Assembly (NCBI GenBank): GCA_944321875.1
Contig: CALUMX010000013.1
Span: 2,816-66,815 of the forward strand
DNA length: 64,000 nucleotides
Reading direction: 5' to 3'
From: an uncultured Muribaculaceae bacterium
GTDB lineage: Bacteria > Bacteroidota > Bacteroidia > Bacteroidales > Muribaculaceae
Shown: positions 4,871 to 46,498 of the stretch, in pieces
Layout of the letters: the number at the start of each line of letters is the position of its first letter
Numbering within the stretch: the first letter of the stretch is position 1
Program-made: the position numbers and the translations under genes
The notes under the pieces: generated by a model
What the model was told of the DNA's origin: nothing
The model's input: the letters and a program-made list of their open reading frames with translations, nothing else
Database searches by the model: none

Positions 4871-7117
4871 ATGAATCCAATTAAGAAAACCATCACGCTT
4901 GCCGATGGCAGAACCATCACTCTGGAAACAGGAAAATTGGCAAAGCAGGCTGATGGCGCAGTAGAGTTGCGCATGGGAAATACGATGCTCCTCGCAACTG
5001 TTGTTTCAGCAAAAGAAGCTGGAGAGGGCGTTGATTTCATGCCGCTCCAGGTAGAGTACAAAGAGAAATTCTCAGCAGCAGGCCGCTATCCGGGCGGTTT
5101 CTTGAAGCGCGAAGGTCGTGCGTCTGATTATGAAATCCTGACGGCGCGTCTTGTTGACCGCGTGCTTCGTCCGTTGTTCCCTGAAAACTATCACGCGGAT
5201 ACTTTCGTGAACATCATCATGTTCTCTTCTGACGGTGTCGACATGCCGGACGCATTGGCCGGTCTTGCAGCCTCAGCCGCTATCGCCGTATCTGACGTAC
5301 CGTTCCACGGTCCTATCTCTGAGGTACGCGTAGCCCGCGTAGACGGACAATTTGTAATCAACCCGACATTTGAGCAGGCTGAAAGAGCCGACATCGAATT
5401 GATGGTAGGTGCTACCTACGACAACATCATGATGGTGGAAGGTGAGATGAACGAAGTGTCAGAGGCTGAATTGCTCGACGCTTTGAAGGCCGCTCACGAA
5501 GCTATCAAGGCTCAATGTCTTGTTCAGGAAGAACTGGCTAAGGAGTTGGGTGTAGTTAAGCGTGAATATTGCCACGAAGTGAACGATGAGGAGCTTCGCA
5601 AGGACGTACACGAAAAGTGCTACGACAAGGCTTATGCCATCGCGAAGGCAGGTTGCGCAGACAAGCAATGGCGCAACGAGTCGTTCCAGAAAGTGGAAGA
5701 AGAATATCTCGAGTCAATTCCGGAAGAGGAGCGCGAGGAAAAGGCTCCGCTCGTTGCCCGTTACTATCACGATGTTGAGAAGGAAGCCGTACGTCGCTGC
5801 ATTCTCGACGAGGGTATCCGTCTTGACGGTCGTAAGACAAACGAAATCCGTCCTATCTGGTGTGAGGTTGATTACCTGCCGGGCCCTCACGGATCAGCCG
5901 TGTTTACCCGTGGTGAGACTCAGGCTCTCGCTACTTGTACGCTGGGTACGAAGCTCGACGAGAAGATTCTCGACGACGTGCTCAACCAGGGCAAGGAACG
6001 CTTCCTCCTTCACTATAACTTCCCTCCATTCTCTACGGGCGAGGCTAAGCCGCAACGTGGCGTAGGCCGTCGTGAGATTGGTCACGGTAACTTGGCTCAC
6101 CGCGCGTTGAAGCGTATGTTCCCGGATGACTTCCCTTATACTTGCCGTATCGTTTCCGATATTCTCGAGTCTAACGGTTCTTCATCCATGGCAACTGTTT
6201 GTGCCGGTACGCTGTCACTGCTCGATGCAGGCGTGAAGATGAAACGTCCGGTTTCAGGTATCGCAATGGGTCTTATCACAGACAATGAAAAATATGCCGT
6301 ACTTTCCGATATCCTCGGCGATGAGGACCACCTCGGAGATATGGACTTCAAGGTAACAGGTACAGAGAAGGGTATCACTGCCACTCAGATGGATATCAAG
6401 TGTGACGGTCTGTCATACGAAATCCTTGAGAAGGCGCTCAACCAGGCTCGCGAAGGCCGTATGTATATCCTCGGCAAGTTGCAGGAGGCTATCCCGGCTC
6501 CGCGCGAGAATTACAAGCCTCACGTTCCTCGCATCGTAACGATGACTATTCCGAAGGAATTCATCGGTGCGGTAATCGGCCCGGGCGGAAAGATTATCCA
6601 AGGCATTCAGGAGGAATCAGGAGCTATTGTTACAATTGAGGAAGAGGGCGACCATGGCAATATCGAGGTGGCTGCTCCTAACCGCGAATCAATCGACAAG
6701 GCTCTTGCACGCATCAAGGCTATCGTGGCTCAGCCGGAAGAGGGTGAGGTTTACACCGGTAAGGTTGTAAGCATCATGGACTTCGGTGCATTCGTAGAAT
6801 TCATGCCGGGTCGTGATGGTCTGCTCCACATCTCTGAAATCGGTTGGGAACGTTATGAATCAATGGACGCTACCGGCCTGCACGAAGGTGACGAGGTAAC
6901 AGTGAAGTTGATTGAGATTGACAAGAAGACAGGTAAGTTCCGCTTGTCAATGCGTGCCCTTCAGCCAAAACCGGAAGGCTACGTAGAGCGTCCGGCTCGT
7001 CCTCCGCGTCGCGAAGGCGGAAACGGTGGCAACGGACGTGGCGGCAACGGCAACGGCGGTGGTCGTGGCCCGCGTCGCGAAGGTGGCAACGGTGGTGGCC
7101 GTGGTCCGCGTTCTTAA
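4871..7117 (+). CDS. pnp: Polyribonucleotide nucleotidyltransferase (PNPase) with a C-terminal Arg/Gly/Asn-rich tail
   Basis: Two RNase PH domains ([14 protein letters not shown]), a KH domain (IGPGGK) and an S1 domain ([15 protein letters not shown]). Length is 748 aa. Confidence 0.95.
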
Positions 7118-7148
7118 TGCAGACATAGTTCAAACAGCGCAATAAAAA

Positions 7149-7185
7149 GCCGTTCCCGGAGAGAAACCGGGAGCGGCTTTTTTTT
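7149..7185 (+). terminator. Intrinsic terminator of pnp
   Basis: Stem gccgttcccgg / ccgggagcggc (11 bp, one G-U pair), 7-nt loop, followed by T8. Confidence 0.8.
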
Positions 7186-7373
7186 ATGTTGACTCCATTT
7201 TGACAGTATGGGGAATTTCTTCTGCTTTTTTGTCATGAGAGGTCGGAAAAATGGTATTTTGTAAGGTGTTGATTTTCAGTGGTGTAATTTTGTGCAATAA
7301 AAATAACTTCAGAAAAAGATGTTTTATAACATATTTTTTGGGCATTTTTCTTGCATAGTTTGCAATTTAGCAC

Positions 7374-7381
7374 TATCTTTG
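7374..7381 (+). promoter_or_regulatory. Bacteroides-type -7 box (tatctttg) upstream of an orphan small ORF
   Basis: Exact TAnnTTTG match about 50 nt upstream of the ATG at 7432. Confidence 0.45.
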
Positions 7382-7431
7382 CAGTGTCAAAAGGATGATA
7401 AGAAAACTAATTTAAAGGAATTGATCCTATA

Positions 7432-7599
7432 ATGCGCAAGAGAGCGCAGCAACTAAATGAAAAGAAAGGAGATTTTATTATGAACACTACGAATCTACAA
7501 AAAGTAAAGCAAATGCCATCACACAGTTTTCATCCTAATGCATCTCTTAGAATGGTGCGTAGAATGGCTTACGTGGCAGGAGTTGACAATCACAATTAA
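7432..7599 (+). CDS. Candidate small protein of 55 aa (39 aa from the internal ATG at 7480), or a non-coding transcript
   Basis: Translated by hand: MRKRAQQLNEKKGDFIMNTTNLQKVKQMPSHSFHPNASLRMVRRMAYVAGVDNHN, stop taa at 7597-7599. It is below the ORF-track size cutoff and is bracketed by a promoter box and a terminator. Confidence 0.3.
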   Translation: MRKRAQQLNEKKGDFIMNTTNLQKVKQMPSHSFHPNASLRMVRRMAYVAGVDNHN

Positions 7600-7645
7600 C
7601 AACTCTTTTAAATCGATTTCTCATAGTTATTAAATAGTTAGGTAG

Positions 7646-7670
7646 CCGACTCAATTGAGCCGGTTTTTTT
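7646..7670 (+). terminator. Intrinsic terminator after the small ORF
   Basis: Stem ccgactc / gagccgg (7 bp with one A-C mismatch), loop aatt, followed by T7. Confidence 0.5.
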
Positions 7671-7842
7671 GTGTCCAGACGGAAAGGTTGTAGGGGTTGG
7701 AATGCGTCGGAATTGCTATTGGAATATAGACAAATATAGATAAATCATTGTCATTCCGATATATAGCGGAGATTTCTTTTGAAATGCCTTTCAAAGTCGC
7801 TATATTCGCTTGTAAAGATTTATTAACTAAACCTGATACATT

Positions 7843-10371
7843 ATGAAAAAATACGGTTTGATGGTTGCGTCCCTGCTTCTCTGTTGCGCGATGCCGGCAG
7901 AAGGGCAGTTGTTGAGGCAACTGGGAAAAGAATTGAAGAAAGTGGCCGAAGACAAGGGAAAAGAGGTGGTGGAACAGTTGACGAAGTCCGATTCTCCGGA
8001 AAAGAAACAGCCGTCAGGCGCTGTGAATGCCGCAAAGTCCGACCCGAATTTCAAGCCGCAGACCATTGAGATTGATGAGGCAACTTACCATTACATCCGA
8101 TTGACGGACGACACGAAGTTTATCCGCATTCCCGAATTGCTCGATTTTGCGGAGATGCATGATGGGTTGTTTGGCGTGAAGAATGAGTCCGGGCGGTGGG
8201 CATTTTTCAATGCGGAAGGAGAGATGGTGTTCGGCTTTGATTGGAACAATCCGACCATGAAGAATGCGAACGTCCGATTTGAGAACGGAGCTGTCATCAT
8301 GAAGAGCGCGAAGTCCGAAGGGTCTAATTATCCTTACTATATTCTTTATAAGGACGGAAGTTGCAAGAAGTTGCCGACTACCTATCTGAATCCTACTCCG
8401 TTTTCCGATGGTCTTGCGAGGGTTTTGAAGAAAACGACAGGCACAGTCAGCTCGCAGGGTGTGTGGGTCTATATCAACACGGAGGGAAAAGAGGTGTTTC
8501 CCAATCTGAACGAGCCGGTGAAGTACAGCTTTACGCCGATTGAGCGCGTAGGACGTATCGGCGACGGATTGCGTGCCCACTACGATACGGACAAGAAGCT
8601 CTGGGGCTACATTGACACGAAAGGCAACATGGTGATTGAGCCGGCATATTTCGAGGCTGGCGATTTCAACGAAGGCCGTGCTGTGGTTGTAACCAGAGAG
8701 GGCTGGGACAAAAAGTGGCATATTATCGACACGCAGGGAAAGGACGTGTTTGGCCGCAGTTTCACGAGTTTTGTTTCCGGCTGTTCTGATGGGCGTATCG
8801 TGGTGCATAACGACGAGAAAAAGCAGGATGAGATCTATGACCGTGACGGAAAATTGCTCAAAACCTTTGAGGTGGCGACTCCGTTTGTGCGCGGCTTCTC
8901 ATGGGTGAAGGAAAAGGAAGGAAACGAAGCTGGTTATTTAGGAGCTTCCAACAGGATGATTGTGGTTGATGAAAACTTCAACAAAGTCAATGACCTTCCG
9001 TTCAGTACGATTTACCGCAACGCTACGGACCAGTATGGATTCAAAGTGGGCGATGCCGGTGTATTTACCTTGAGTGTCAATTCCGTTCCGCAAATCTATA
9101 TGCCCGACGGCCGGCTTGTGATTTCCGGCAGGACTACCGGAGAGGTGGAGGCTTTCAGTTCAGATTTCATGGCGAAGGCTGATATGGCGCCTTTCGACAA
9201 TGGATATTGCGGATTTATCAACGAGAAAGGCGAATTTGAACTGGTGTTGAAGTCGGAAGTAACGGCAGGCAGAGTGCCTTCCGTTGTTGGTGGCAATCCG
9301 GACACAACACCCGGAGAAACGGTCGAGGTGGAATGGAAAGAACCGCCTTCACCACCGACACCGCCGGCAGGAAAGCCTTGGTCGGAACCCGTCTATACGG
9401 TGACGGCAGTTGCCGACCCGGCAGAGGGTGGAACGGTAACCGGTTCCGGAGAATACAAATACGGCGACCAGGTGGAAGTGGTGGCATCTCCCAGCGAAGG
9501 CTGGAAATTGGGAACTATCGAGTCGGATACTTATGTGACCAACCTGTCGGACAATGCGGTACGTGCTACCGTCAGAGGCCGTGACTTGAATTTTACCGCA
9601 AAATTCATCAAGGAGGATGAGCTGCTTGAGCCTCGTCCGTTGACGGCATCCGGCAAGGGTAGCTATGGCAATACGGACAGCAAGGTGGAATGGGACGTTT
9701 ATTTGCTGCAGAGCAATGAGAAGAACGTCAGCTCGCCTTATGGCAACGCGACTTATGGCTATCTGACGGCGATTTTCGACAGCGAGCAGCTGTATGCCTT
9801 CGAAATGGATGAGCTGAAGGACGTCGGTCAGATTTATGCGAAATTCTGTTTTGTACCGATGTTGATTTCCGGCCGGATTGTCGACGGAGAGAAAGAGTAT
9901 ATCGTAGCCGACGGTGGTCAGTTCATGGTGGGCGGATTGAACGCGAAAATCAACGACCCGCTGATGAATCTCTATCTGAGTTTCCTTATCAGCTACAACG
10001 GAGCGTCGCACGCTACGGTGAGCGATGCCCGCTACCGCATTGAGGTTCAGAGCCGGGATGAGGCGACGGGAGCCTGCACGTTGGGTCGTCTTGAGCGCTA
10101 TCATCCTTCTTATGGATGGTTGCCGTCCGACAACGATGCGTTCAAGCCTTCGGGAAGTGGAGGTTTCACGCTGTTGCCAAAGACCAACAAGAATGCGTCC
10201 ATCCCGACGTTTATCTTCCAGGGCATACGCCTGACACCTTGCGACGTGCGCAACGACGTGACGTGGGCACCGCCTGCAGGATGGTTTGCCGACCAGAAAG
10301 AATATGACGACGCAACGACAAAACTGATGGAATCAATCAGCACGTTTATAGAGCGCTTTGAGCAGTTTTAA
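7843..10371 (+). CDS. Secreted WG-repeat (KWG) protein with a Listeria-Bacteroides-type repeat and a C-terminal region of unknown function
   Basis: Signal peptide is present. There are multiple W(A/G)(F/Y)I(N/D)..G repeats (WAFFNAEGEMV, WGYIDTKGNMVIEPAYFEAGDFNEGRAVV, WHIIDTQGKDV). YTVTAVADPAEGGTVTGSGEYKYGDQVEVVASPSEGW resembles an InlB B-repeat. Confidence 0.75.
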   Translation: MKKYGLMVASLLLCCAMPAEGQLLRQLGKELKKVAEDKGKEVVEQLTKSDSPEKKQPSGAVNAAKSDPNFKPQTIEIDEATYHYIRLTDDTKFIRIPELLDFAEMHDGLFGVKNESGRWAFFNAEGEMVFGFDWNNPTMKNANVRFENGAVIMKSAKSEGSNYPYYILYKDGSCKKLPTTYLNPTPFSDGLARVLKKTTGTVSSQGVWVYINTEGKEVFPNLNEPVKYSFTPIERVGRIGDGLRAHYDTDKKLWGYIDTKGNMVIEPAYFEAGDFNEGRAVVVTREGWDKKWHIIDTQGKDVFGRSFTSFVSGCSDGRIVVHNDEKKQDEIYDRDGKLLKTFEVATPFVRGFSWVKEKEGNEAGYLGASNRMIVVDENFNKVNDLPFSTIYRNATDQYGFKVGDAGVFTLSVNSVPQIYMPDGRLVISGRTTGEVEAFSSDFMAKADMAPFDNGYCGFINEKGEFELVLKSEVTAGRVPSVVGGNPDTTPGETVEVEWKEPPSPPTPPAGKPWSEPVYTVTAVADPAEGGTVTGSGEYKYGDQVEVVASPSEGWKLGTIESDTYVTNLSDNAVRATVRGRDLNFTAKFIKEDELLEPRPLTASGKGSYGNTDSKVEWDVYLLQSNEKNVSSPYGNATYGYLTAIFDSEQLYAFEMDELKDVGQIYAKFCFVPMLISGRIVDGEKEYIVADGGQFMVGGLNAKINDPLMNLYLSFLISYNGASHATVSDARYRIEVQSRDEATGACTLGRLERYHPSYGWLPSDNDAFKPSGSGGFTLLPKTNKNASIPTFIFQGIRLTPCDVRNDVTWAPPAGWFADQKEYDDATTKLMESISTFIERFEQF

Positions 10372-31858: not shown

Positions 31859-32680
31859 ATGGCAGTTACTATGGCTGACATCAGCAAGCTCCGCAAATTG
31901 ACAGGTGCTGGCATGATGGACTGTAAAAAAGCATTGGAAGAAACCAATTGTGATATGGACGCAGCTGTTGAAATCATTCGTAAGAAGGGTCAGGCAGTTG
32001 CTGCTAAGCGTGAGGACCGCGAAGCTTCTGAAGGTTGCGTGCTTTCAGCTGCTCAAGACGGATTCGCTGCTCTTGTTGCTCTCAAGTGCGAGACTGACTT
32101 CGTTGCTAAGAACGAAGGTTTCGTAGCTCTTACAAAGAAGATTCTTGACGCTGCTATGGCTGCTAAGTGCAAGTCTTTGGAAGAGGTTAACGCTTTGGTT
32201 ATCGAAGGTCGTCCGGTTTCTGAGCTTATCGTTGAGGAAATCGGTAAGACTGGTGAGAAGATGGAGCTCGGTGGTTACGAGTGGCTTGAGGGTGCTGGCG
32301 TTACTTGCTACGACCACCTCGGCAACAAGCTCTCTACTATCCTTGCTTTCAACAAGCCGGTTGAGCGTCAGGTAGGCCGCAACGTTGCTATGCAGGTTGC
32401 TTCCATGAACCCGATTTCTGTAAGCCGTGCTGATGTTCCTGCTGAAGTTGTTAAGCAGGAGTTCGAAATCGCTCGCGAGAAGGCTCGTGCTGAAGGCAAG
32501 AAGGAAGAAATGCTCGACAAGATTGCAGAAGGCCGTCTGAACAAGTTCTACAAGGAATCTTGCCTTTTGGAACAAGAATACATCATGGACGCTTCTATGA
32601 CAATTGAGAAGTATCTGAAGAGCGTAGAGAGCGACTTGGTTGCTACTGCATTCAAGCGTCTCAACCTCAACGAAGATTAA
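31859..32680 (+). CDS. tsf: Elongation factor Ts
   Basis: UBA-like N-terminus ISKLRKLTGAGMMDCKKALEE and the dimerisation core. Confidence 0.95.
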   Translation: MAVTMADISKLRKLTGAGMMDCKKALEETNCDMDAAVEIIRKKGQAVAAKREDREASEGCVLSAAQDGFAALVALKCETDFVAKNEGFVALTKKILDAAMAAKCKSLEEVNALVIEGRPVSELIVEEIGKTGEKMELGGYEWLEGAGVTCYDHLGNKLSTILAFNKPVERQVGRNVAMQVASMNPISVSRADVPAEVVKQEFEIAREKARAEGKKEEMLDKIAEGRLNKFYKESCLLEQEYIMDASMTIEKYLKSVESDLVATAFKRLNLNED

Positions 32681-32708
32681 TTTAGCAATAAATTATATTC
32701 GAGAATAT

Positions 32709-32740
32709 GCCGCCGGGGAGTTTTCTCCGGCGGCTTTTTT
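32709..32740 (+). terminator. Intrinsic terminator of tsf
   Basis: Stem gccgccgggg / ctccggcggc, loop ~tttt, followed by T6. Confidence 0.8.
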
Positions 32741-32882
32741 GTTGTTATTGAGATTAAATTAGTGCCATGAGCAAAAATGTAGAAAAATCGCTTATAACAG
32801 ACTAAAAGGGAGTAAATCCGATAAAAAACTACTTATTTTTTGTATCTTTACAGCAAAAGGACGTTATTAGACCCGAGTGATA

Positions 32883-33239
32883 ATGACAACAAAATTTAGT
32901 GTCACAATAGCTGGAGGGCGAGTTCTCTGGCTACAAATTAGACAAAGAAAAAGTACTCTACTTTCTCCAGAATACACTACTTGACGTAACTATCAGTTCC
33001 AGTGGTGCGTCTGGAGTTGATGCTTGAGGGGAAGGATTTGCCAAAGAGCAAGGTTTAGAGTTGATCACTAAACATGTAGATTGGGGCAAGTATTGAAGAA
33101 GTGAAGCTAAAAGAAATGCAAAATGGCAGAGATAGCGGATGCTCTTATTGCTTTTTGGAATGGTTAATCTAGAAGTACAAAGAATATGATAAATACCTCT
33201 ACTTCCAAAGGACTAGTAGTGAAAGTTGTAAAATATTAA
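32883..33239 (+). pseudogene. Decayed DUF2493 / SLOG-family (YspA-like) gene
   Basis: My three-frame reading gives MTTKFSVTIAGGR, then EFSGYKLDKEKVLYFLQNTLLDVTISSSGASGVDA*GEGFAKEQGLELITKHVDWGKY*, then KMAEIADALIAFWNG*SRSTKNMINTSTSKGLVVKVVKY. This matches the DUF2493 pattern (SGGA.G.D..GE.YA...GL......ADW.KYG..AG..RN..M...AD.LIAFWDG.S.GT..MI) but carries at least 3 in-frame stops and at least 2 frameshifts. Confidence 0.7.
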
Positions 33240-33244
33240 ATACT

Positions 33245-35029
33245 ATGGCAGGTTTATTTCAAGAATCAGATTTTGCTTTATTTACACAATATCAAGGCAA
33301 AACGCAAGCTGAAGCCCCAGAGGGCCAAGTACCTTTGACGCAGATGTATCATAAACTAGGCAATATACTTGATGGTCTTCAAAGTTTGGGATATCGTACT
33401 AACATTAGAAGAAACCCATTAGCCCAAGCTGGTCCGGCGACCTTTAAGTATTGTGACTACCATTGGGCTAAAGTATATCCTAAAGAATATACTCTTTTCA
33501 AGGAGTGTGAAGATAAGATTTTTTTTGTGATTGGTACGACACAAGATGGCTTTAACATTCATATAGATACTAACTCCAAAAAGGGCATTGACAGTGAAAA
33601 CAACAAGGAAGCCAAAGCAATCAAGAAAGAGACTTGGTGGCAATTCTCTCCCGCAGAATCAAGTCAAAAATCACTTGAAGAATTTGTCTCTGCTACTGAC
33701 AAATATATACAAGAGTATTGGATAGAGTTTAATAAGTTTGCTAGCATCTATGGAGTCCAAGAAAGTATAAAGATTCTAAAGAATATGGAGCTAGAAAAAA
33801 CAAAGAAACTTCTATTAGGCAATCATAATTTAATATTAACAGGAGCTCCGGGTACGGGTAAAACATATCTTGCAAAGCAACTTGCTAAGGCTATTGGAGC
33901 AACCGATGAATCAATCAAACTAGTTCAATTTCATCCTTCTTATGACTACACTGACTTTGTTGAAGGATTGAGACCTGTTGGTGAAAAGAAGGAACTTGGA
34001 TTTGAGCGAAAAGATGGTGTATTCAAGGCTTTTTGTAAAGAAGCTATTACGGCTCAATCGGGAAGAAGTTTTGAAGCTTTGTATAAGGCTTTAACTAAAG
34101 ATATTACCGATGGTATCATTACAAAGTATAGGACTCTTTCAGGTAATGAGTATGAACTTAAAGTTGACGGTGGTACTATTAAGTTCTGCTGTCTAGAGAA
34201 TGGCACAAAATGGAGGAGTGAGAATACCGATAACATCAAATTGCTCTTTGAGTTCTTATGCAAGGACACCGATCCTAGTAGATATTACAATACGGAGAAA
34301 ATAAGAAATCTTATGGAAAAGGTTTCGGGTGGTGCAGTAAAGACAGTTGACCCATCAGAGTATATATGGACTATCAAACAACTTATTGATAGATACAAGG
34401 TGATACCTACTATCTATGTATTTATCATTGATGAAATTAATAGAGGTGAGATATCTAAAATCTTTGGAGAATTGTTCTACTCAATTGATGCAGGATACAG
34501 AGGCACAAAAGGTAGGGTTAACACGCAATATCAAAATCTAGTTCCAAAGGATGATTTATTTGCGAAAGGCTTCTATATTCCTGAAAATGTCTACATCATT
34601 GGCACAATGAATGACATTGATAGAAGTGTAGAAAGTATGGATTTTGCTATGAGAAGAAGATTTGCTTGGAAGGAAATTACAGCAGAATCTAGACAATCTA
34701 TGCTTGATGAAGATGATGCTTGGGGTGATAATCCAAAGCCATCTCCTGATGTTATTGCAGAAATGAAAATCAGGATGAACAACCTCAATGCTTGTATCAT
34801 TGATAAGTATCTTGATGGGACTCTTTCACCCAAGGATAAGATTGGGCTTGCCAAGGCTTACCAAATTGGTGCTTCCTACTTCTTGAAATATGCAACCTAT
34901 GGCAATTTTGATGAACTATGGGAGAACCATATTGAAGGATTGCTTTATGAATACTTGAGAGGTTCTTCTAATGTGGAGACAAAGATAGAAAGATTACATC
35001 AAGCATATAACGATATTACCGCACATTGA
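33245..35029 (+). CDS. McrB-family AAA+ GTPase subunit with an uncharacterised N-terminal domain (~185 aa) and a ~120-aa insertion in the AAA+ core
   Basis: Walker A GAPGTGKT (aa 200-207). McrB signature LVQFHPSYDYTDFVEGLRP. Walker B YVFIIDEINRGEISKIFGEL. The motif ENVYIIGTMNDIDRSVESMDFAMRRRFAW corresponds to E. coli McrB NVYIIGLMNTADRS...ALRRRF. The gene is AT-rich. Confidence 0.85.
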   Translation: MAGLFQESDFALFTQYQGKTQAEAPEGQVPLTQMYHKLGNILDGLQSLGYRTNIRRNPLAQAGPATFKYCDYHWAKVYPKEYTLFKECEDKIFFVIGTTQDGFNIHIDTNSKKGIDSENNKEAKAIKKETWWQFSPAESSQKSLEEFVSATDKYIQEYWIEFNKFASIYGVQESIKILKNMELEKTKKLLLGNHNLILTGAPGTGKTYLAKQLAKAIGATDESIKLVQFHPSYDYTDFVEGLRPVGEKKELGFERKDGVFKAFCKEAITAQSGRSFEALYKALTKDITDGIITKYRTLSGNEYELKVDGGTIKFCCLENGTKWRSENTDNIKLLFEFLCKDTDPSRYYNTEKIRNLMEKVSGGAVKTVDPSEYIWTIKQLIDRYKVIPTIYVFIIDEINRGEISKIFGELFYSIDAGYRGTKGRVNTQYQNLVPKDDLFAKGFYIPENVYIIGTMNDIDRSVESMDFAMRRRFAWKEITAESRQSMLDEDDAWGDNPKPSPDVIAEMKIRMNNLNACIIDKYLDGTLSPKDKIGLAKAYQIGASYFLKYATYGNFDELWENHIEGLLYEYLRGSSNVETKIERLHQAYNDITAH

Positions 35030-36333
35030 TTACAAGAGACTATAGCATAGCAAGTGTCAATCCTGAAGAACTTCAAGACTTGAAGACCATTGTTGGTGTA
35101 CCCATCTCAACTATCGGTTTAGAGGAGTACCCCAACTTACTTGTATTTCCGGATTCCTTTGAAGAGTATGATAGGGACTTTGGAAAGAAAGTTGTGTGTG
35201 ATATAGTAGATGACAGTAAATTACTAACCAATAGTATCGTTGGCTTTATTGGCAGAAATAGCACAAAACTCTCTATCCATTCAAGATTTTCAAAAGAGGA
35301 TGAAGGTGACTACTTCTTGCATTATATGCTCCAGAAGGTAGCTAAGGTGAACATCCTAAATTTACAGCACACTTTGGATGAGGATAGTGTGTTTGATTAT
35401 TTAGTTTATTTGTTTCCCTTATATTTAAAGAAGGCTATTACCCAAGGAATATACAAGCAATATAAAACACAAAAGTACAATGATGCAAATGTAAAAGGTG
35501 TCATAGATATAAACAGGCATATCAGATACAATAAGCCTTTCAATGGTAAGGTAGCATATACTACAAGGGAGTATAGTTACGATAACGATATTACCCAATT
35601 GATTAGGCATACTATAGAATACATCTCCAAGCGTAAAGAAGGTGGAACTGAAATCCTATCAATTGATACCGATACAAAAGAGGCAGTATCCCAAATAATC
35701 AGTGCTACTCCTACGTATTTGTCCAATGAGTTGGTAGCCATTATAAATAAGAATATTCGACCATTAGTACATCCTTACTATAGTGAGTATGTTTCGCTTC
35801 AAAGACTATGTTTGCAGATTCTTCGTCACGAAGAATTGAGATATGGTCAAGAAGAAGATGAAATTTATGGAGTACTTATTGATGCTGCTTGGTTATGGGA
35901 AGAGTATTTGGATATAATATTAGAAGGTAAGTATGTCCACTATAAGAAGAATGAGGGTAAACGATTCTACTTATTTGAGAACTTCCAACAGATTATACCA
36001 GATTACCTATCTTTGGATAAGAGTATTGTTGCAGATGCCAAATACATTCCACTCAATAAAGAGAGGGACTATGGTGAGGAAAAAGCTACCGCTATTTATT
36101 ACAAGACTATTACTTATATGTATAGGTTTTGCTCTAACAAAGCATACTTATTCTATCCCCATCCTGATGGAGAAGAACAACCTGTTACTTACAAGATAAA
36201 AACGGAGCAAGATGGTATAAATGGGGGTGTCATTATCAAGCAAGGATTAAGTATACCTTCCGGATGCAATTCCTTTATAGAATTTTCCAACAAGATGAAG
36301 CAATCAGAGGAAAAGTTTCTATCTGAGATATAA
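35026..36333 (+). CDS. McrC / LlaJI-R2-like PD-(D/E)xK nuclease subunit
   Basis: The TTG start overlaps the upstream TGA stop by 4 nt (ttga). N-terminal NLLVFP ... NSIVGFIG ... LSIHSRF resembles McrC. C-terminal WLWEEYL ... IIPDY(D326) ... VADAKY(D337, K339) is a PD...D.K nuclease motif. Confidence 0.75.
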   Translation: MITRDYSIASVNPEELQDLKTIVGVPISTIGLEEYPNLLVFPDSFEEYDRDFGKKVVCDIVDDSKLLTNSIVGFIGRNSTKLSIHSRFSKEDEGDYFLHYMLQKVAKVNILNLQHTLDEDSVFDYLVYLFPLYLKKAITQGIYKQYKTQKYNDANVKGVIDINRHIRYNKPFNGKVAYTTREYSYDNDITQLIRHTIEYISKRKEGGTEILSIDTDTKEAVSQIISATPTYLSNELVAIINKNIRPLVHPYYSEYVSLQRLCLQILRHEELRYGQEEDEIYGVLIDAAWLWEEYLDIILEGKYVHYKKNEGKRFYLFENFQQIIPDYLSLDKSIVADAKYIPLNKERDYGEEKATAIYYKTITYMYRFCSNKAYLFYPHPDGEEQPVTYKIKTEQDGINGGVIIKQGLSIPSGCNSFIEFSNKMKQSEEKFLSEI

Positions 36334-36533
36334 AAACGAGTTGTTGGATTATTATAAATTATTCAATAAATGAAAAATTATTTCTTTCAATAGTAATACG
36401 AGAGACACAGAAGTCTATATTAAAGTAGAATTTGTACGGACAAATATAAATGATATCAACATAGACAATAAGGATAATACCGCGTATGCCGATGCTAATA
36501 ACCGTTATGCAGATAAAAATAGCCCTTTGTCAA

Positions 36534-36584
36534 AGAAACAATAATCGGTTGTAACCTGAAAAGTTGCAACCGATTATTGTTTCT
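36534..36584. repeat. Long perfect inverted repeat (hairpin) at the right edge of the AT-rich island
   Basis: Arm 36534-36555 pairs with 36563-36584. There are 22 bp (18 perfect, then one G-U, then 3 more) around the 7-nt loop ctgaaaa. It lies 200 nt after the mcrC-like stop. Confidence 0.7.
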
Positions 36585-36595
36585 ATAAAAGCAAA

Positions 36596-36633
36596 AGAGA
36601 CCGACCTCAAAAAATCTCTTTTGGGTCGGCTCT
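36596..36633 (-). terminator. Terminator of the T9SS cargo gene
   Basis: Stem agaga-ccgacc / ggtcgg-ctct with one bulge; the minus strand continues with T-rich sequence. Confidence 0.6.
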
Positions 36634-36657
36634 GTTCTTTTATCAGGTTATCGTGGC

Positions 36658-38883
36658 TTAGAAAACGACCTTGAATGTGCGTGCGCCTACCTTGATAATG
36701 TAGACTCCGCGTGCTGGAAGCTTATAGGCTGCGTCTGTTGCCGCTGTATTGTCAAGAGTGACTGTTCGTCTGTCGAGCGAGTAGATGCCGACAGGAGCGT
36801 TCTGAGGATTGCATACGCGGAGCAGATTGCCGTCGACAAATACCTTTGTCGCGTCGTCGAAGAGCTTGCAGGCTCCGCTTACCGATTCGTTCACGGTGAT
36901 TTCCTCGGAATACGGGCTGGTGATTTGCACCTTGTTCGGGTTTACGCTCGCAGCGAAGAGCTTGTAGGAGATGATTTCCGGACCCGTGAGGTTGATGTCT
37001 TCGAAGTTGCAGGAGCTGTTCTGGTTGCCGTAGAGCGTCTTGCTGTCGATTTCCTTGGAGAGGGAAGTGCCTTGCTTCATGTCGATGGACAGTTGGAGGT
37101 CATCAAACATGAGTGACTTGCCGTCTGTCGGATAAATCAGCACATAGCATTTCTCCGTTCCGTTGGCGAGGTTGACCGTCTGCTTCGTCATGGTGGCTGT
37201 CACAGGAACTTCGTGGGTGTCGATTTCCACAAAGCTGCCTTCCTCGTCGGTTGTGGCGAGGGCGACAATGGCCTTTGTGCATTCCTCTGCGCTGCCCAGT
37301 GTAAGGGTTAGCGTAGCCTTTCCGTCAAACGGCGTGAGGTCGAGTGCCGGTGAGTACATATAGGTCAAAGAGCCGTATGAGCCGAAAGAATTGTCGAGGC
37401 CGACACCGCCGTTCATCAGCGCTTTCATCTGTACGAACCATCCGTAAGCGCCTGTCTCACGGCCCAGATATTCGTTGTCGTAGGTCTTTTCCGGCTTCTC
37501 GAGCGTACCTTCGGAGACGATGCCGTTGAAGTCAGTGTCGGTGTGCATGTAAGTCTCATCAGTGGCGGCTGTATAGTTGCTGAACACGTCGATTTTGTAA
37601 GTGTTGGCAGCAGGGTGAACTTCCCAGTTGGCCGTGAAGGCATTGTCGGTCTTGTCGGAGGCTGCAAGGGCAACCGGTGCGTCGAGGGTTGCCGGCTTGA
37701 CAACGATACTCTCCGATGTTTTTGTCTTTGAGTCGTTGGTCTCCGTTGCTGTCACGTTGTAGTAGTAGACGGTCGGAGCGGGTAGGTTGTCAATGACGAG
37801 TTGTGTCTCTGTGGTCTCTGCGTCGGTCAGAACCGGTTTCTGGACGAAGGTGTTGTCCTCGTTCAGGTCGTTGTAGTAGACGTTGACAGTATAGCTTTTC
37901 GCGCTTTCCACCTTGCTCCAGGATGCGGTGAACTTCTTGCCGTCGTAATCGGTCACCTCATTGGGGACAGGTGCGGCTGTATAAGTGATGCCCAGTTTGG
38001 TTGAATATGGCGATGGTACGCCGTCTTTCACGGCTGCCACCTGGAACGAATACTCATAGTCGGGATTCAAGTCAGTGATGTCGTAGAAATTCTCGTTGAC
38101 CTGCTGGTCCTTTATCGGATAGTGGATGTCCCACATCTCGTCCAGGTAGGACACGTTGAGAAGGTAGTAGTCGGCACCTTCCGATGCGTCCCAGCTCAGG
38201 TGGGCTGATTTGCCGTCAAAGAGCGATGTCTTCAATCCCGTAGGCGGTTGCAGACCTTCGGCTGAGATGACGATATCGTCGATGTAGAGCCCGGCCTCGA
38301 AGGCGTAGAACTGGACGTAGCACAGGTCTGTGCCTTGGGCAAGAGCAACCTTATAGTCTTTCCACTCGCCGGTCATCGGCAGGTCGACAACACTGAGCGG
38401 ATAATAGGGGTCGTCGGGGTCGTAGATACCGACTGACACATGGTCGTCGATGGATTTGTCGGAGCGTGCGCGGAACGAAATCGTGGAGATGCCTCCATTC
38501 GCACTCATGTCGAGGATAGGAGTGTTGAGGAATCCGTGTTCCGGGCCATACCAACCGTCGACCATGCCGATATAGGCTATACCGCCGGCCTGATAGACGG
38601 CGGCTCCCGTCCAATTAGGGGTCTGGAAGTAGTTCTCGCTGCCTTGGATTTGTCCATATTCATCGTCGAGCGGAGTGGTGTCGGGAGCGGCTTCGCTTCC
38701 GGCAGTGAATTTCTCGAAGTTCTCAGAGATGATAATGGCTCCCTCCTGCGTGTCTGCCTTGTGGATGGCGCTGACGAGCTTGAACGGTTTTTCTTCAGGT
38801 AATAACCTGCCTTTCTGAATAGCGGCTGTGCCCACACCGACGGACAGAGCGGTGGTGAGGGTTAAGATGATAAAGTTTCTCAT
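36658..38883 (-). CDS. Secreted multi-domain protein (N-terminal choice-of-anchor-J-like domain, several FN3-like modules) with a T9SS C-terminal sorting domain
   Basis: Signal peptide is present. FN3-like segments include PPTGLKTSLFDGKSAHLSWDASEGADYYLLNV. The C-terminal sequence LLRVCNPQNAPVGIYSLDRRTV...LPARGVYIIKVGARTFKVVF matches the type-A T9SS CTD pattern. Confidence 0.75.
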   Translation of the reverse strand: MRNFIILTLTTALSVGVGTAAIQKGRLLPEEKPFKLVSAIHKADTQEGAIIISENFEKFTAGSEAAPDTTPLDDEYGQIQGSENYFQTPNWTGAAVYQAGGIAYIGMVDGWYGPEHGFLNTPILDMSANGGISTISFRARSDKSIDDHVSVGIYDPDDPYYPLSVVDLPMTGEWKDYKVALAQGTDLCYVQFYAFEAGLYIDDIVISAEGLQPPTGLKTSLFDGKSAHLSWDASEGADYYLLNVSYLDEMWDIHYPIKDQQVNENFYDITDLNPDYEYSFQVAAVKDGVPSPYSTKLGITYTAAPVPNEVTDYDGKKFTASWSKVESAKSYTVNVYYNDLNEDNTFVQKPVLTDAETTETQLVIDNLPAPTVYYYNVTATETNDSKTKTSESIVVKPATLDAPVALAASDKTDNAFTANWEVHPAANTYKIDVFSNYTAATDETYMHTDTDFNGIVSEGTLEKPEKTYDNEYLGRETGAYGWFVQMKALMNGGVGLDNSFGSYGSLTYMYSPALDLTPFDGKATLTLTLGSAEECTKAIVALATTDEEGSFVEIDTHEVPVTATMTKQTVNLANGTEKCYVLIYPTDGKSLMFDDLQLSIDMKQGTSLSKEIDSKTLYGNQNSSCNFEDINLTGPEIISYKLFAASVNPNKVQITSPYSEEITVNESVSGACKLFDDATKVFVDGNLLRVCNPQNAPVGIYSLDRRTVTLDNTAATDAAYKLPARGVYIIKVGARTFKVVF

Positions 38884-44109: not shown

Positions 44110-44697
44110 TTACTTGCTTTCTGCCACTTTTGTGTAGCGGGTGTTGAGGATTTTCACGATGTCGTTGGTAATGTTCGGAATGTTGTTGACATACCAAGTC
44201 TGGCTCTTGTCGAGCACTACGGAGATGTTGTGCTCCTTCGCGTATTCCTTCACGCACTTGTTGATGGAGTCCTGAAGTTGCTTTGTGCTCTGGCCCATTT
44301 CTGTGCCGAGCGTGTTCTGCAGGTTGACCATGTAGCGTTCAGCGTCGGCCTGCATTTGCTGCAGTTTCTGCTGGTCAGCGTTGAAGCTCTGCTCCGTCAG
44401 GTATTGGTTGTTTTTATATTTCTGCTCCATGCTTGCTGCGAAACGCTGTATCTCAGCTGCCTTCTGCTGTCTTGCAGACTCGAGCTTTGACTGGGAGCGC
44501 TGGCTTGCTTCGTTGACGTCCTTTGCAAAGTTGTAGTTAGTGTAAAGAGAGTCGCTGTCGATGTAGGCCATTTTCACTTCCGCAGGCACTTCAGCTGGTT
44601 TCTTGTCGGTATTCTCAGCCTTTTCAGACGAACACTGATAGAATAAAACTGCAGATAGCAGAACAGGAGTGATTTTGATGAGTTTGGTGAGATTCAT
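44110..44697 (-). CDS. OmpH/Skp-family periplasmic chaperone
   Basis: Signal/lipoprotein peptide, Q/K/E-rich helical hairpin region, and VVLDKS near the C-terminus. Confidence 0.75.
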   Translation of the reverse strand: MNLTKLIKITPVLLSAVLFYQCSSEKAENTDKKPAEVPAEVKMAYIDSDSLYTNYNFAKDVNEASQRSQSKLESARQQKAAEIQRFAASMEQKYKNNQYLTEQSFNADQQKLQQMQADAERYMVNLQNTLGTEMGQSTKQLQDSINKCVKEYAKEHNISVVLDKSQTWYVNNIPNITNDIVKILNTRYTKVAESK

Positions 44698-44710
44698 ATT
44701 TTATAATTTT

Positions 44711-44881
44711 TTACTTTTTTAATTCTTCGTCCTTAGCGCAACGGATATTGTGCTTCCTCATCGCCGGGTTGTCGTGAATGTGTCCCGACGGGAACTTTCC
44801 CCCTTTCACAAAAAATACTTTCACCCCCAACATGATGATACATAGGGCGATGATTCCGATAGAGAGCAATATGGTTGGCAT
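44711..44881 (-). CDS. Small single-pass membrane protein (56 aa)
   Basis: MPTILLSIGIIALCIIMLGVKVFF transmembrane segment followed by a basic tail. I chose ATG 44881 because a -7 box lies about 20 nt upstream. Confidence 0.5.
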   Translation of the reverse strand: MPTILLSIGIIALCIIMLGVKVFFVKGGKFPSGHIHDNPAMRKHNIRCAKDEELKK

Positions 44882-44900
44882 TGTCTGTGATTTTTGAGTG

Positions 44901-44908
44901 CAAATATA
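44901..44908 (-). promoter_or_regulatory. -7 box (tatatttg on the minus strand) for the small membrane protein/OmpH unit
   Basis: Plus-strand caaatata is an exact TAnnTTTG match. Confidence 0.45.
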
Positions 44909-45028
44909 TGAAATTGGCACATAAATTTCGCGGTAAAATCAATTTATTTTTTTATCTTAGGGGTCGAATTGTTTTGGATTTAACAATATTTCAAAAATAC
45001 AGCAACTTAAAATTAATTCTAAATAACT

Positions 45029-46498
45029 ATGACAATCAAAGATTTGGAACCAAAATTGATTTGGTCAATTTTCGATGAGATTACACAAGTACCTCGCCCT
45101 TCAAAGAAAGAAGAGAAAATTCGCGAATATCTGCTCGATTTCGCAAAGAAATATAATTTGGAGGCTAAGACTGACGGCGTAGGCAACGTCGTTATCTATG
45201 CTCCGGCAACTCCGGGTAAGGAGAATGCTCCGGTTGTTGTACTCCAAGGCCACATGGACATGGTGCCTAACCAGACAAAACCGGAAACTCACAACTTCGA
45301 AACTGACCCTATCCTGACGGAAGTGGACGGCGAATGGCTGCACTCAGCAGGCTACAAGACTACGCTCGGTGCCGACAACGGTATCGGTATGGCTGCCGCT
45401 CTTGCCGCTCTTATCGACAAGTCGTTTGAGCACGGTCCGCTGGAGGCTCTCTTCACGGTTGACGAGGAGACGGGTCTGACAGGTGCGAAGAACCTGGGCA
45501 AGGACATGATTACAGGTGAGATTCTTCTAAACCTCGACTCTGAGGATGAGGCTCAAATCTTCCTTGGATGCGCAGGTGGTATCGACACTATCGGTTATTT
45601 TGACTACAAGTGTGAGGAAGTGCCTGCCGGCTATCAGTTCTTCAAGTTCTCGATGACAGGTTTCCGTGGCGGTCACTCAGGTGCCGACATTCATTTGGGA
45701 CGTGCCAACGCCAACAAGTTGCTCGCGCGCTTCCTTGTTGACTGCTACAAGGCTTACGGCAACATCGCCCTCGCCGACATCAACGGTGGTGAGCTCCGCA
45801 ACGTAATTCCGGGCAACGCATACGCTGTTATCGGTGTTCCTGCCGACAAGAAGGAAGACCTCCGTACACGCGTTAATCACTACGCTGCCGTTATCGAGGA
45901 AGAATACCGCGGCATCGAGGACCTTCAGAAGATTGCTCTGGAGTCAGCCGATACCCCTTGCTGCGTAATCGACGGTTGCACGGCGAAGCGTGTCGTTCTG
46001 GCGTTGAACTCCATGCCGAACGCTGTGATTGCCATGAGCCGCAGCATCAAGGACATGGTGAGCACATCCACTAACCTCGCTCTTATCCGCAAGGACAGCG
46101 AGAAGAAGCAAATCGTCATCACAACTTCTCAACGTAGCGAGGAGGAGACTCGCAAGTTTGACATCGCATCCCAAATCTACTCTCACTTCGAGCTTGCCGG
46201 TGCTACGGTAGAGCAGGGTGACGGTTATCCGGGATGGACTCCTAACATGGATTCAAAGATTCTGAAGGTGGCTGTCAAGGCTTACGAGGACCTTTACGGC
46301 ATCACTCCTTACTGCACTTCTCTCCACGCTGGTTTGGAATGCGGTAACTTCTTGGTTGACAATCCGAAGCTCGACATGATTTCATTCGGTCCGACACTCC
46401 GTGACGTTCACACTCCGAAGGAATCCATGCACATTCCGGCTGTAGAGAAATTCTGGTGCCACTTGGTAAGAATTCTTGAAATGGTAGCTGAAAAGTAA
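45029..46498 (+). CDS. pepD: Aminoacyl-histidine dipeptidase (M20C, PepD)
   Basis: IPRPSKKE-like start (QVPRPSKKEEKI), GHMDMV, GADNGIG, DEETG. Confidence 0.9.
   Translation: MTIKDLEPKLIWSIFDEITQVPRPSKKEEKIREYLLDFAKKYNLEAKTDGVGNVVIYAPATPGKENAPVVVLQGHMDMVPNQTKPETHNFETDPILTEVDGEWLHSAGYKTTLGADNGIGMAAALAALIDKSFEHGPLEALFTVDEETGLTGAKNLGKDMITGEILLNLDSEDEAQIFLGCAGGIDTIGYFDYKCEEVPAGYQFFKFSMTGFRGGHSGADIHLGRANANKLLARFLVDCYKAYGNIALADINGGELRNVIPGNAYAVIGVPADKKEDLRTRVNHYAAVIEEEYRGIEDLQKIALESADTPCCVIDGCTAKRVVLALNSMPNAVIAMSRSIKDMVSTSTNLALIRKDSEKKQIVITTSQRSEEETRKFDIASQIYSHFELAGATVEQGDGYPGWTPNMDSKILKVAVKAYEDLYGITPYCTSLHAGLECGNFLVDNPKLDMISFGPTLRDVHTPKESMHIPAVEKFWCHLVRILEMVAEK

Follow-up and report, generated by a model that had tools for sequence, protein, structure and literature searches.

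A contig of an uncultured Muribaculaceae bacterium (GenBank assembly GCA_944321875.1, contig CALUMX010000013.1) carries a compact, AT-rich island with two intact genes between tsf and a convergently oriented downstream gene, which raises the question of what this DNA is and what it might do for the strains that have it. Here, a computational analysis of the island is reported for a 64,000-nucleotide (nt) stretch of the contig, hereafter the window, whose positions serve as coordinates unless a locus label (L0xx or L1xx) is given. The island is probably a self-contained restriction cassette of two genes, from the NxxD clade of the McrBC family, that was acquired horizontally and cuts foreign DNA in defence of its host. 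Few defence nucleases are as common as McrBC systems, whose targets are set by reader domains; only a handful of these have been characterised.

An island carried by some strains only

The GC content of positions 32746-36590 is 35.3%, compared with 51.7% in the left flank (1-32680) and 52.7% in the right flank (36658-64000). Set against every other stretch of 3,886 bp in the 64 kb (mean 52.1%, standard deviation 2.5%, minimum 47.2%), the island has a z-score of -6.6; its GC content falls sharply at both ends in a 300-nt sliding profile, and it is the only patch of the window that is both below 40% GC and longer than 800 bp. The preliminary description of this DNA, made from the sequence alone, had given values of 25-30% GC inside the island and about 52% outside. 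The sharp drop stands, at 35% versus about 52%, and the four 60-nt lines counted by hand at the time are exact (30%, 25%, 51.7% and 51.7% GC), but the 25-30% figures come from the most AT-rich lines and are unrepresentative of the whole. Short patches (800 bp or less) below 40% GC also occur elsewhere in the window, for example at 7101-7900 and 44501-45300; these may be intergenic regions or small accessory inserts.

Presence/absence polymorphism between tsf and the downstream gene, which had been put forward as a check on the insertion, was found within the species, and the junctions were mapped to the base. Conspecific metagenome contigs were collected by an exact look-up of RpsA, and among those with a 100% identical protein approximately 6 are occupied and approximately 16 are empty, so that about a quarter carry the island (these counts assume that "similar places" share the state of the place displayed). 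The occupied contigs (L098-L100 and three similar places) have the gene order of the window, namely downstream gene, mcrC, mcrB, and tsf, while in the empty contigs (L093-L097, L101, L102, and nine similar places) the downstream gene and tsf are only about 150 bp apart. By comparing window positions 32500-36900 with the empty alleles L093-L097, L101, and L102 (via blastn), the breakpoints were placed between 32740 and 32741 and between 36626 and 36627; over the same interval, the occupied L098-L100 are collinear with the window at 99.8-100%. The empty alleles hold a 61-bp spacer of native composition at this site that is missing from the occupied allele, so that 3,886 bp have taken the place of 61 bp.

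No trace of this spacer was seen within the island in the junction comparison, and neither the junction sequences nor a repeat scan revealed a target-site duplication, direct repeat, or terminal (inverted) repeat at the junctions. As first described, the list of open reading frames (ORFs) in the island includes no integrase, transposase, methyltransferase, or specificity subunit. Of the features expected of a horizontally acquired island, polymorphism and deviant composition are thus present, and mobility machinery and insertion scars are not. The species representatives of GTDB were uninformative for the empty-site comparison, the best Tsf being 68% identical with no synteny downstream of tsf. 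Ribosomal proteins of the window share up to 90% identity with their counterparts in metagenome-assembled genomes of Muribaculaceae and other Bacteroidales. The island is foreign DNA carried by some strains only. As a separate observation, the 61-bp spacer differs at several positions between L094 and L093 while its flanks are 98-100% identical, indicating a faster pace of evolution in this hotspot than in the sequence around it.

Copies of the cassette with 92-93% nucleotide identity sit between other genes in other genomes. For example, the copies in L107-L110 lie between TamB and an extracytoplasmic function (ECF) sigma factor, a more diverged copy (68% identical) is flanked by purL and esterase genes, and copies with other types of the motor insert described below, or with none, are found among housekeeping genes. 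The cassette keeps a GC content of 34-36% where the host flanks are at 42-50%, and no methyltransferase adjoins it in the eight contexts examined (this island and seven copies, on Bacteroidales-type metagenome contigs). The cassette moves between genomes without a methyltransferase. Most other copies show the same tandem of mcrB followed by mcrC, with a gap between the called genes in L103 and L116-L119, and the TTG start and gene overlap of the window are kept in L104 and L107. Between copies from different genomes, the ratio of nonsynonymous to synonymous substitution rates (dN/dS) is 0.14-0.21 for mcrB and 0.11-0.13 for mcrC; both genes are under purifying selection, in agreement with the earlier suggestion that selection maintains the pair. 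Phage genomes yielded only partial matches, to the AAA+ core, and thus no evidence of a phage-borne cassette.

The predicted McrB-type motor and McrC-type nuclease

Both ORFs were recovered as first described: the mcrB-like gene (33245-35029, plus strand) starts with ATG and encodes 594 amino acids (aa), and the mcrC-like gene (35026-36333) starts with TTG, encodes 435 aa, and overlaps its neighbor by 4 nt, an arrangement compatible with coupled translation. All of the McrB motifs that had been quoted are present and are invariant or nearly invariant in 53 full-length homologs: GAPGTGKT at residues 200-207, QFHPSYDYTDFVEGLRP at 228-244, IIDEINR at 394-400, MNDIDRS at 455-461, and RRRF at 470-473. 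The protein matches the Pfam family AAA_5 (E 3e-17) and the McrB structures of Escherichia coli (6hz4 and 6ut6, E 1e-35) and Thermococcus gammatolerans (6ut3, E 1e-30), with Walker A, the QFHxSYxYxDF segment, Walker B, MNxxDRS, and the arginine motif all aligned to solved McrB. The second half of the core aligns to residues 273-417 of E. coli McrB and 146-345 of T. gammatolerans McrB, the precomputed Pfam annotation lists PF28529 (McrB_lid), and mean pairwise identity within the family is 76% in both halves of the core. Judged by these motifs, gene 1 encodes a McrB-type AAA+ NTPase that lacks none of the catalytic motifs known from solved McrB GTPases. In the solved homologs, GTP is selected through contacts with the main chain and with water, which lie upstream of the core and vary between homologs (PMC7680126); GTP selectivity is therefore unreadable from sequence, in which the stacking aromatic residue Y208 alone is visible.

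The product of the second gene matches PF10117 (E 9.3e-45) over profile positions 3-318 of 318. As previously noted, it has a C-terminal nuclease motif, with IIPDY starting at residue 323 and ADAKY at residue 336, which places the putative catalytic residues at D326, D337, and K339; all three are invariant in 20 homologs. The motif aligns with PDY...DAKY of T. gammatolerans McrC, the only solved McrC reached by the profile, and some homologs are named McrC by JGI. Gene 2 accordingly encodes a full-length McrC with an intact PD-(D/E)xK site. Taken together, the pair has the motor motifs of the McrBC family, a McrC with the finger/DUF2357 region and a PD-(D/E)xK motif, and a tandem operon with the B gene upstream.

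Searches with hidden Markov models place the pair in the McrBC family without typing it, and detect no known reader domain. The McrB-like protein scores 135.8 bits against a cutoff of 637 with the NCBIfam equivalog of E. coli McrB (NF008457), over the AAA+ core only, and its defence-type matches in PADLOC (2023) are all partial (two "REase_II" models and one "mad8"). Similarly, the McrC-like protein reaches 30.5 bits against a cutoff of 338 with the McrC equivalog NF007277 and has no PADLOC match.

Two solved systems are among the closest known ones. EcoKMcrBC (6hz4, 6ut6, 7vsr) shares with the cassette the B-then-C operon, an alignable AAA+ core (E 1e-35), a PF10117 partner, and the lack of a cognate methyltransferase. 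The cassette is, however, not its ortholog (136 bits versus 637): its N-terminal domain is unrelated in sequence, McrB-N was not retrieved by fold search, a 121-aa module stands where E. coli McrB has approximately 6 residues, and the 435-aa McrC has additional segments at both termini that the Pfam model does not cover. T. gammatolerans McrBC (6ut3-6ut8) is likewise similar in the AAA+ core (E 1e-30) and in the aligned PDY...DAKY nuclease motif, but the N-terminal domain of the cassette has a different, unmatched predicted fold, and the AAA+ insertions of the T. gammatolerans protein differ in position and size. T. gammatolerans McrB carries a YTH-like reader.

If the cassette works like the solved McrBC complexes of E. 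coli and T. gammatolerans (PMC7680126), its McrB-like protein would form a nucleotide-dependent hexamer, the finger domain of McrC would enter the ring and stimulate hydrolysis, and translocation would bring complexes together, whereupon the PD-(D/E)xK nuclease of McrC would cut the DNA. The N-terminal domain would be the main DNA reader, with the insert tuning or adding specificity, and the target would be a feature that host DNA lacks, that is, a modified base as in type IV systems.

Candidate recognition domains and the likely target

The N-terminal domain of the McrB-like protein (N-domain) has a mean pairwise identity of 52% in the family and five invariant residues (Y69, H73, W74, F93, and G102). 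In an exhaustive search of 1.84 billion representative proteins, it was found in only 55 clusters at 50% identity, always at the N-terminus, and the ten distant full-length carriers that were scanned are all AAA_5/McrB-type NTPases; a separate search for homologs of the N-domain only, limited by the word index, returned 4 proteins. Its AlphaFold model is very confident (predicted local distance difference test (pLDDT) 95.6, predicted template modelling score (pTM) 0.89), and a Foldseek search with it gave nothing at E <= 0.001 in PDB or BFVD (viral predicted structures), the best match being Spo0M (E 0.03, TM 0.34). Among 23 members, no Pfam family recurs in the N-domain, even at E <= 1. A likeness between IPW...GIYPVILY and YHW...IFFVIG had suggested that the N-domain might be a divergent E. 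coli McrB-N (DUF3578 or "ADAM"). This idea was rejected, as the PDB Foldseek results list no McrB-N, YTH, EVE/PUA, SRA, or B3 domain and there is no E. coli McrB sequence match in this region.

The DNA reader of canonical McrB sits at the N-terminus, and N-terminal readers differ between McrB homologs (bioRxiv 10.64898/2026.08.31.748284). As the N-domain occupies the canonical reader position, it was taken to be the primary DNA reader, a role that is presumed from position and conservation, and in which Y69, H73, W74, and F93 are candidate residues of a base-binding pocket.

The second candidate lies inside the motor. Between helix alpha2 and the Walker B strand, a position occupied by approximately 6 aa in E. 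coli McrB, the window encodes a module whose mean pairwise identity among the 53 homologs is 17% (median 11%), set against 76% in the flanking halves of the core. The inserts cluster into 8 types at E 1e-6 and at least 70% coverage, with the type of the window common to 9 proteins; single linkage at E 1e-3 chained 52 of the 53 together. All types share one secondary-structure pattern (a helix, four strands, and further helices) and seem to be diverged forms of a single module. The model of the insert (pLDDT 83.8) has no PDB fold match in Foldseek, and no Pfam family recurs in it. Copies of the same type are under purifying selection (dN/dS 0.12-0.15), so the diversity reflects exchange of whole modules and not ongoing, point-wise positive selection. 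An insert of 99-141 aa is present in 81 of the 120 closest homologs, and 37 have only a connector of 7-10 aa; the latter keep the N-domain (55-57% identity), the core (75-76%), and an overlapping McrC partner.

Inserts of this kind have been seen before. McrB GTPase domains frequently carry insertions that likely encode specificity domains, according to the main text of the census of Bell et al. 2024 in eLife (PMC11090510), and the NxxD GTPase of the cassette resembles the insert-bearing McrB GTPases reported there. Inserts were removed for phylogeny in that work, and the insert types, their optional nature, and the N-domain of the cassette are not described in its main text. The census also defines the NxxD clade and sets it apart from CoCoNuT systems, which are NxD-clade McrBC systems with long coiled-coil fusions and a predicted RNA target (PMC11090510, main text). 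Membership of the cassette in CoCoNuT was rejected, given its NxxD signature (N456-D459 in MNDIDRS) and a predicted secondary structure with no long coiled coil in the N-domain or insert.

Judged by its position and conservation, the insert probably adds to or tunes target specificity. On a different account, the N-domain is the sole reader and the insert is a surface shaped by an arms race, either as a docking site for phage anti-restriction proteins that diversifies to evade them or as a sensor of phage proteins that switches the motor on. Such a role would fit an insert that is dispensable in 37 of the 120 relatives, that resembles no DNA-binding fold in the PDB, and that keeps a constant secondary-structure pattern in all types while its sequence diverges; the purifying selection within types, with diversity arising by whole-module replacement, is also in line with it. 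Two considerations weigh against this account, which is improbable in our estimation: we know of no phage inhibitor directed at the family of the cassette, and the authors of the census read such inserts as specificity domains, as stated in its main text (PMC11090510).

Taking the N-domain and the insert together, a dual mode of recognition can be sketched, in which a constant N-terminal reader, whose fold has no counterpart among solved structures, is combined with an exchangeable module inside the GTPase motor, and exchange or loss of the module retargets the enzyme. This scheme is put forward tentatively, and we hold it to be possible but rather doubtful. If it were true, it would be akin to the swapping of target-recognition domains in type I enzymes, but within a type IV AAA+ motor, and would constitute an undescribed route to diversity of type IV specificity in gut and oral Bacteroidales.

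With regard to the target, no cognate methyltransferase travels with the cassette, and the feature recognized is therefore most likely one that is absent from host DNA; a nuclease reaching new genomes unaccompanied would be tolerated most readily in that case, which favours, by analogy, a modification-dependent (type IV) mode. A competing account holds that the cassette encodes a sequence-specific, modification-independent enzyme like LlaJI, LlaI, or BsuMI, with the insert as its target-recognition domain and the host spared by an unlinked methyltransferase or a missing site. These systems likewise combine a McrB-like AAA+ motor with a McrC-like nuclease, and the partial "REase_II" matches in PADLOC cover the C-terminal half of the AAA+ core. 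Moreover, the variation of the insert (8 types with 11% median identity in a scaffold of 76%) resembles that of the interchangeable target-recognition domains in type I specificity subunits, and methyltransferase-associated McrBC branches appear in the census (PMC11090510, main text). LlaJI, LlaI, and BsuMI, however, are accompanied by methyltransferases, and the three-gene layout of LlaI includes R1, a DNA-binding protein in its own right (bioRxiv 10.64898/2026.08.31.748284), whereas the cassette has two genes, an N-domain fused to its motor, no methyltransferase in the island or by the seven copies, and a nuclease that matches PF10117 and not an LlaJI-type model. In the eight Bacteroidales-type contexts the cassette lands alone among housekeeping genes, where a site-specific nuclease arriving without protection should be toxic, and versions without the insert exist and also pair with McrC, so the insert is not the sole recognition element. 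On balance, a site-specific enzyme appears unlikely here.

A related pair on Enterococcus faecium plasmids (WP_002346665.1 and WP_002346666.1), whose position next to type I genes also speaks for site-specific recognition, helps to delimit the group. Its 590-aa McrB-like protein is 34% identical to that of the cassette and has an insert at the same position, and the gene overlaps that of a 430-aa PF10117 partner that is 36% identical to the McrC described here. The pair differs in having another N-terminal region, without the YHW domain, and in lying directly 3' of a type I restriction-modification operon on a conjugative plasmid. Since it shares the core, insert, and McrC but not the N-domain, the clade with inserts spans phyla, and the N-domain marks a narrower subfamily. 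Both of its proteins are annotated in general terms ("AAA family ATPase" and "hypothetical protein"). In E. faecium NZ_LR135783.1 (L114, 1-8794), the pair follows hsdM-hsdS-hsdR in the same orientation, an arrangement that recurs on many E. faecium plasmids.

The subfamily of the cassette is very abundant in host-associated Bacteroidales metagenomes; a metagenome search gave at least 8,000 scored McrB-like candidates and 5,547 McrC-like proteins at E <= 1e-5. Homologs are publicly annotated as "AAA family ATPase," "hypothetical protein," or "McrB family protein," with no specific family name. N-terminal readers are known to vary and inserts are known to be frequent, so another McrBC system with a new reader is no surprise. 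What appears undescribed, as far as could be found, is an N-domain without a fold relative and the combination of a constant N-domain with an optional module of several types in the motor. The family offers a natural experiment, in which nearly identical motors differ only in the type of the embedded module or in its absence, and the mapped empty and occupied alleles of this species provide a clean natural contrast for phenotype. Should the modules set target specificity, they could account for the unequal susceptibility of individual gut Bacteroidales strains to phages and to DNA transfer, and they would supply new modification-specific DNA-binding domains and enzymes for epigenetic tools.

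Several results weigh against the restriction cassette as proposed. No McrBC-type model of PADLOC (2023) recognises the pair, and the match of the McrC profile to a solved structure is weak (E 0.13, T. gammatolerans McrC). The N-domain is unlike the known readers of modified bases (McrB-N/DUF3578, YTH, EVE/PUA, and SRA) in both sequence and predicted fold, and it is consequently by position that the role of reader is assigned to it. Finally, a remnant of approximately 390 bp parts the conserved leader from mcrB in this genome, and expression here is therefore not assured.

This last point bears on the possibility that this genome carries the cassette only as a passenger, non-functional or silenced and of no benefit to the host, after displacement of its promoter by the remnant. 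In L107 the counterpart of the leader directly abuts the mcrB-like start codon, which marks the approximately 390 bp at 32849-33236 as an extra piece in the window. No convincing promoter was found with a sigma-70-type model, whose consensus does not cover Bacteroidota promoters (19 matches, against 14.5 +/- 3.6 in shuffled sequence), and the restriction of the island to about a quarter of conspecific contigs would also suit a passenger. Nevertheless, both ORFs are intact and keep their catalytic residues at dN/dS values of 0.11-0.21, and the McrB-like protein is 100% identical over 18 contigs from several samples. We therefore judge a dead or silent passenger very unlikely.

Non-coding parts, flanking genes, and neighborhoods of other copies

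The features of the locus are collected in Table 1.

Table 1. Coordinates of the island, its parts, and the adjoining hairpins in the window.
Feature	Position	Strand	Description
Accessory island	32741-36626		3,886 bp, 35.4% GC; in its place, a 61-bp native spacer in conspecific empty alleles
tsf terminator hairpin	32709-32734	+	11-bp stem followed by a T-run; -25.5 kcal/mol; just outside the island and the same in empty alleles
Cassette leader	32746-32848	+	79% identical to L107 7906-8009; ends beside the promoter-like box 32843-32850
Extra segment, frame-broken remnant	32849-33236	+	Between leader and mcrB; absent from the copies in L103-L107
McrB-like N-terminal domain	33245-33790	+	aa 1-182; conserved; presumed DNA reader
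AAA+ core, first half	33791-34045	+	aa 183-267; Walker A GAPGTGKT (K206), aromatic Y208, QFHPSYDYTDFVEGLRP; aligns to E. coli McrB 180-266
Hypervariable module	34046-34408	+	aa 268-388, 121 aa; between helix alpha2 ("FCKEA") and the Walker B strand; optional in the family
AAA+ core, second half and lid	34409-35029	+	aa 389-594; Walker B IIDEINR, NxxD signature MNDIDRS, RRRF; stop codon 35027-35029
McrC-like nuclease subunit (predicted)	35026-36333	+	435 aa; TTG start; 4-nt overlap with the mcrB stop (35026-35029); PD-(D/E)xK encoded at about 35992-36045
Short 3' tail travelling with the cassette	36334-36388	+	Homology with L107 and L109 runs to 36388
AT-rich island-specific tail	36389-36626		No counterpart in other cassette copies
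Hairpin after the stop codon of the downstream gene	36596-36633	-	Rebuilt over the right junction, one arm coming from the island and the other being the shared native CGGCTCT

A pseudogene had been proposed upstream of mcrB. The frame-broken stretch itself is present, with stops and frame shifts in a three-frame translation of 32849-33236, but its identity is weak, since the only resemblance is a match to YspA/SLOG (PF10686, E 0.004) that falls below the cutoff. The remnant hints at a larger element from which the island derives or through which it once passed. At the other end of the island, the AT-rich tail contains an inverted repeat at 36534-36584 (22 nt, 95% complementary, with a 7-nt loop) that is confined to the occupied alleles of this species among the 125 loci compared, and that could be a terminator of the cassette or a relic of the donor element.

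The island had been placed between the terminators of tsf and of a cargo gene of the type IX secretion system (T9SS). The tsf hairpin does lie just outside the left junction and is the only terminator-like site found in 32600-36750, but the T9SS label could not be confirmed: in the 741-aa protein encoded on the minus strand at 36658-38883, Pfam finds fn3 only, and NCBIfam has no match. The RNA fold of 36585-36650, over the rebuilt hairpin after the stop codon of this gene, has an energy of -23.6 kcal/mol, compared with -18.7 kcal/mol for the empty allele's own hairpin, AGAGCCGTAC...GTACGGCTCT. Among the occupied alleles compared, the 741-aa protein differs by 1-2%, while neighboring ribosomal genes are 100% identical.

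Some copies in other genomes have neighbors of a different kind. The copy at L104 4227-9079 (approximately 92% nucleotide identity) adjoins a type II CRISPR-Cas9/Cas1/Cas2 locus, and that at L103 1173-7756 (approximately 92%) shares a patch with CHAT, RES, and DDE-transposase genes; the surroundings of the cassette thus resemble defence islands in some hosts. Directly 3' of a homologous cassette with a different insert type, L120 9255-11533 holds a PDDEXK_9/AAA-ATPase_like/HTH gene and a PDDEXK_3 gene, which may be further nuclease-type defence genes.

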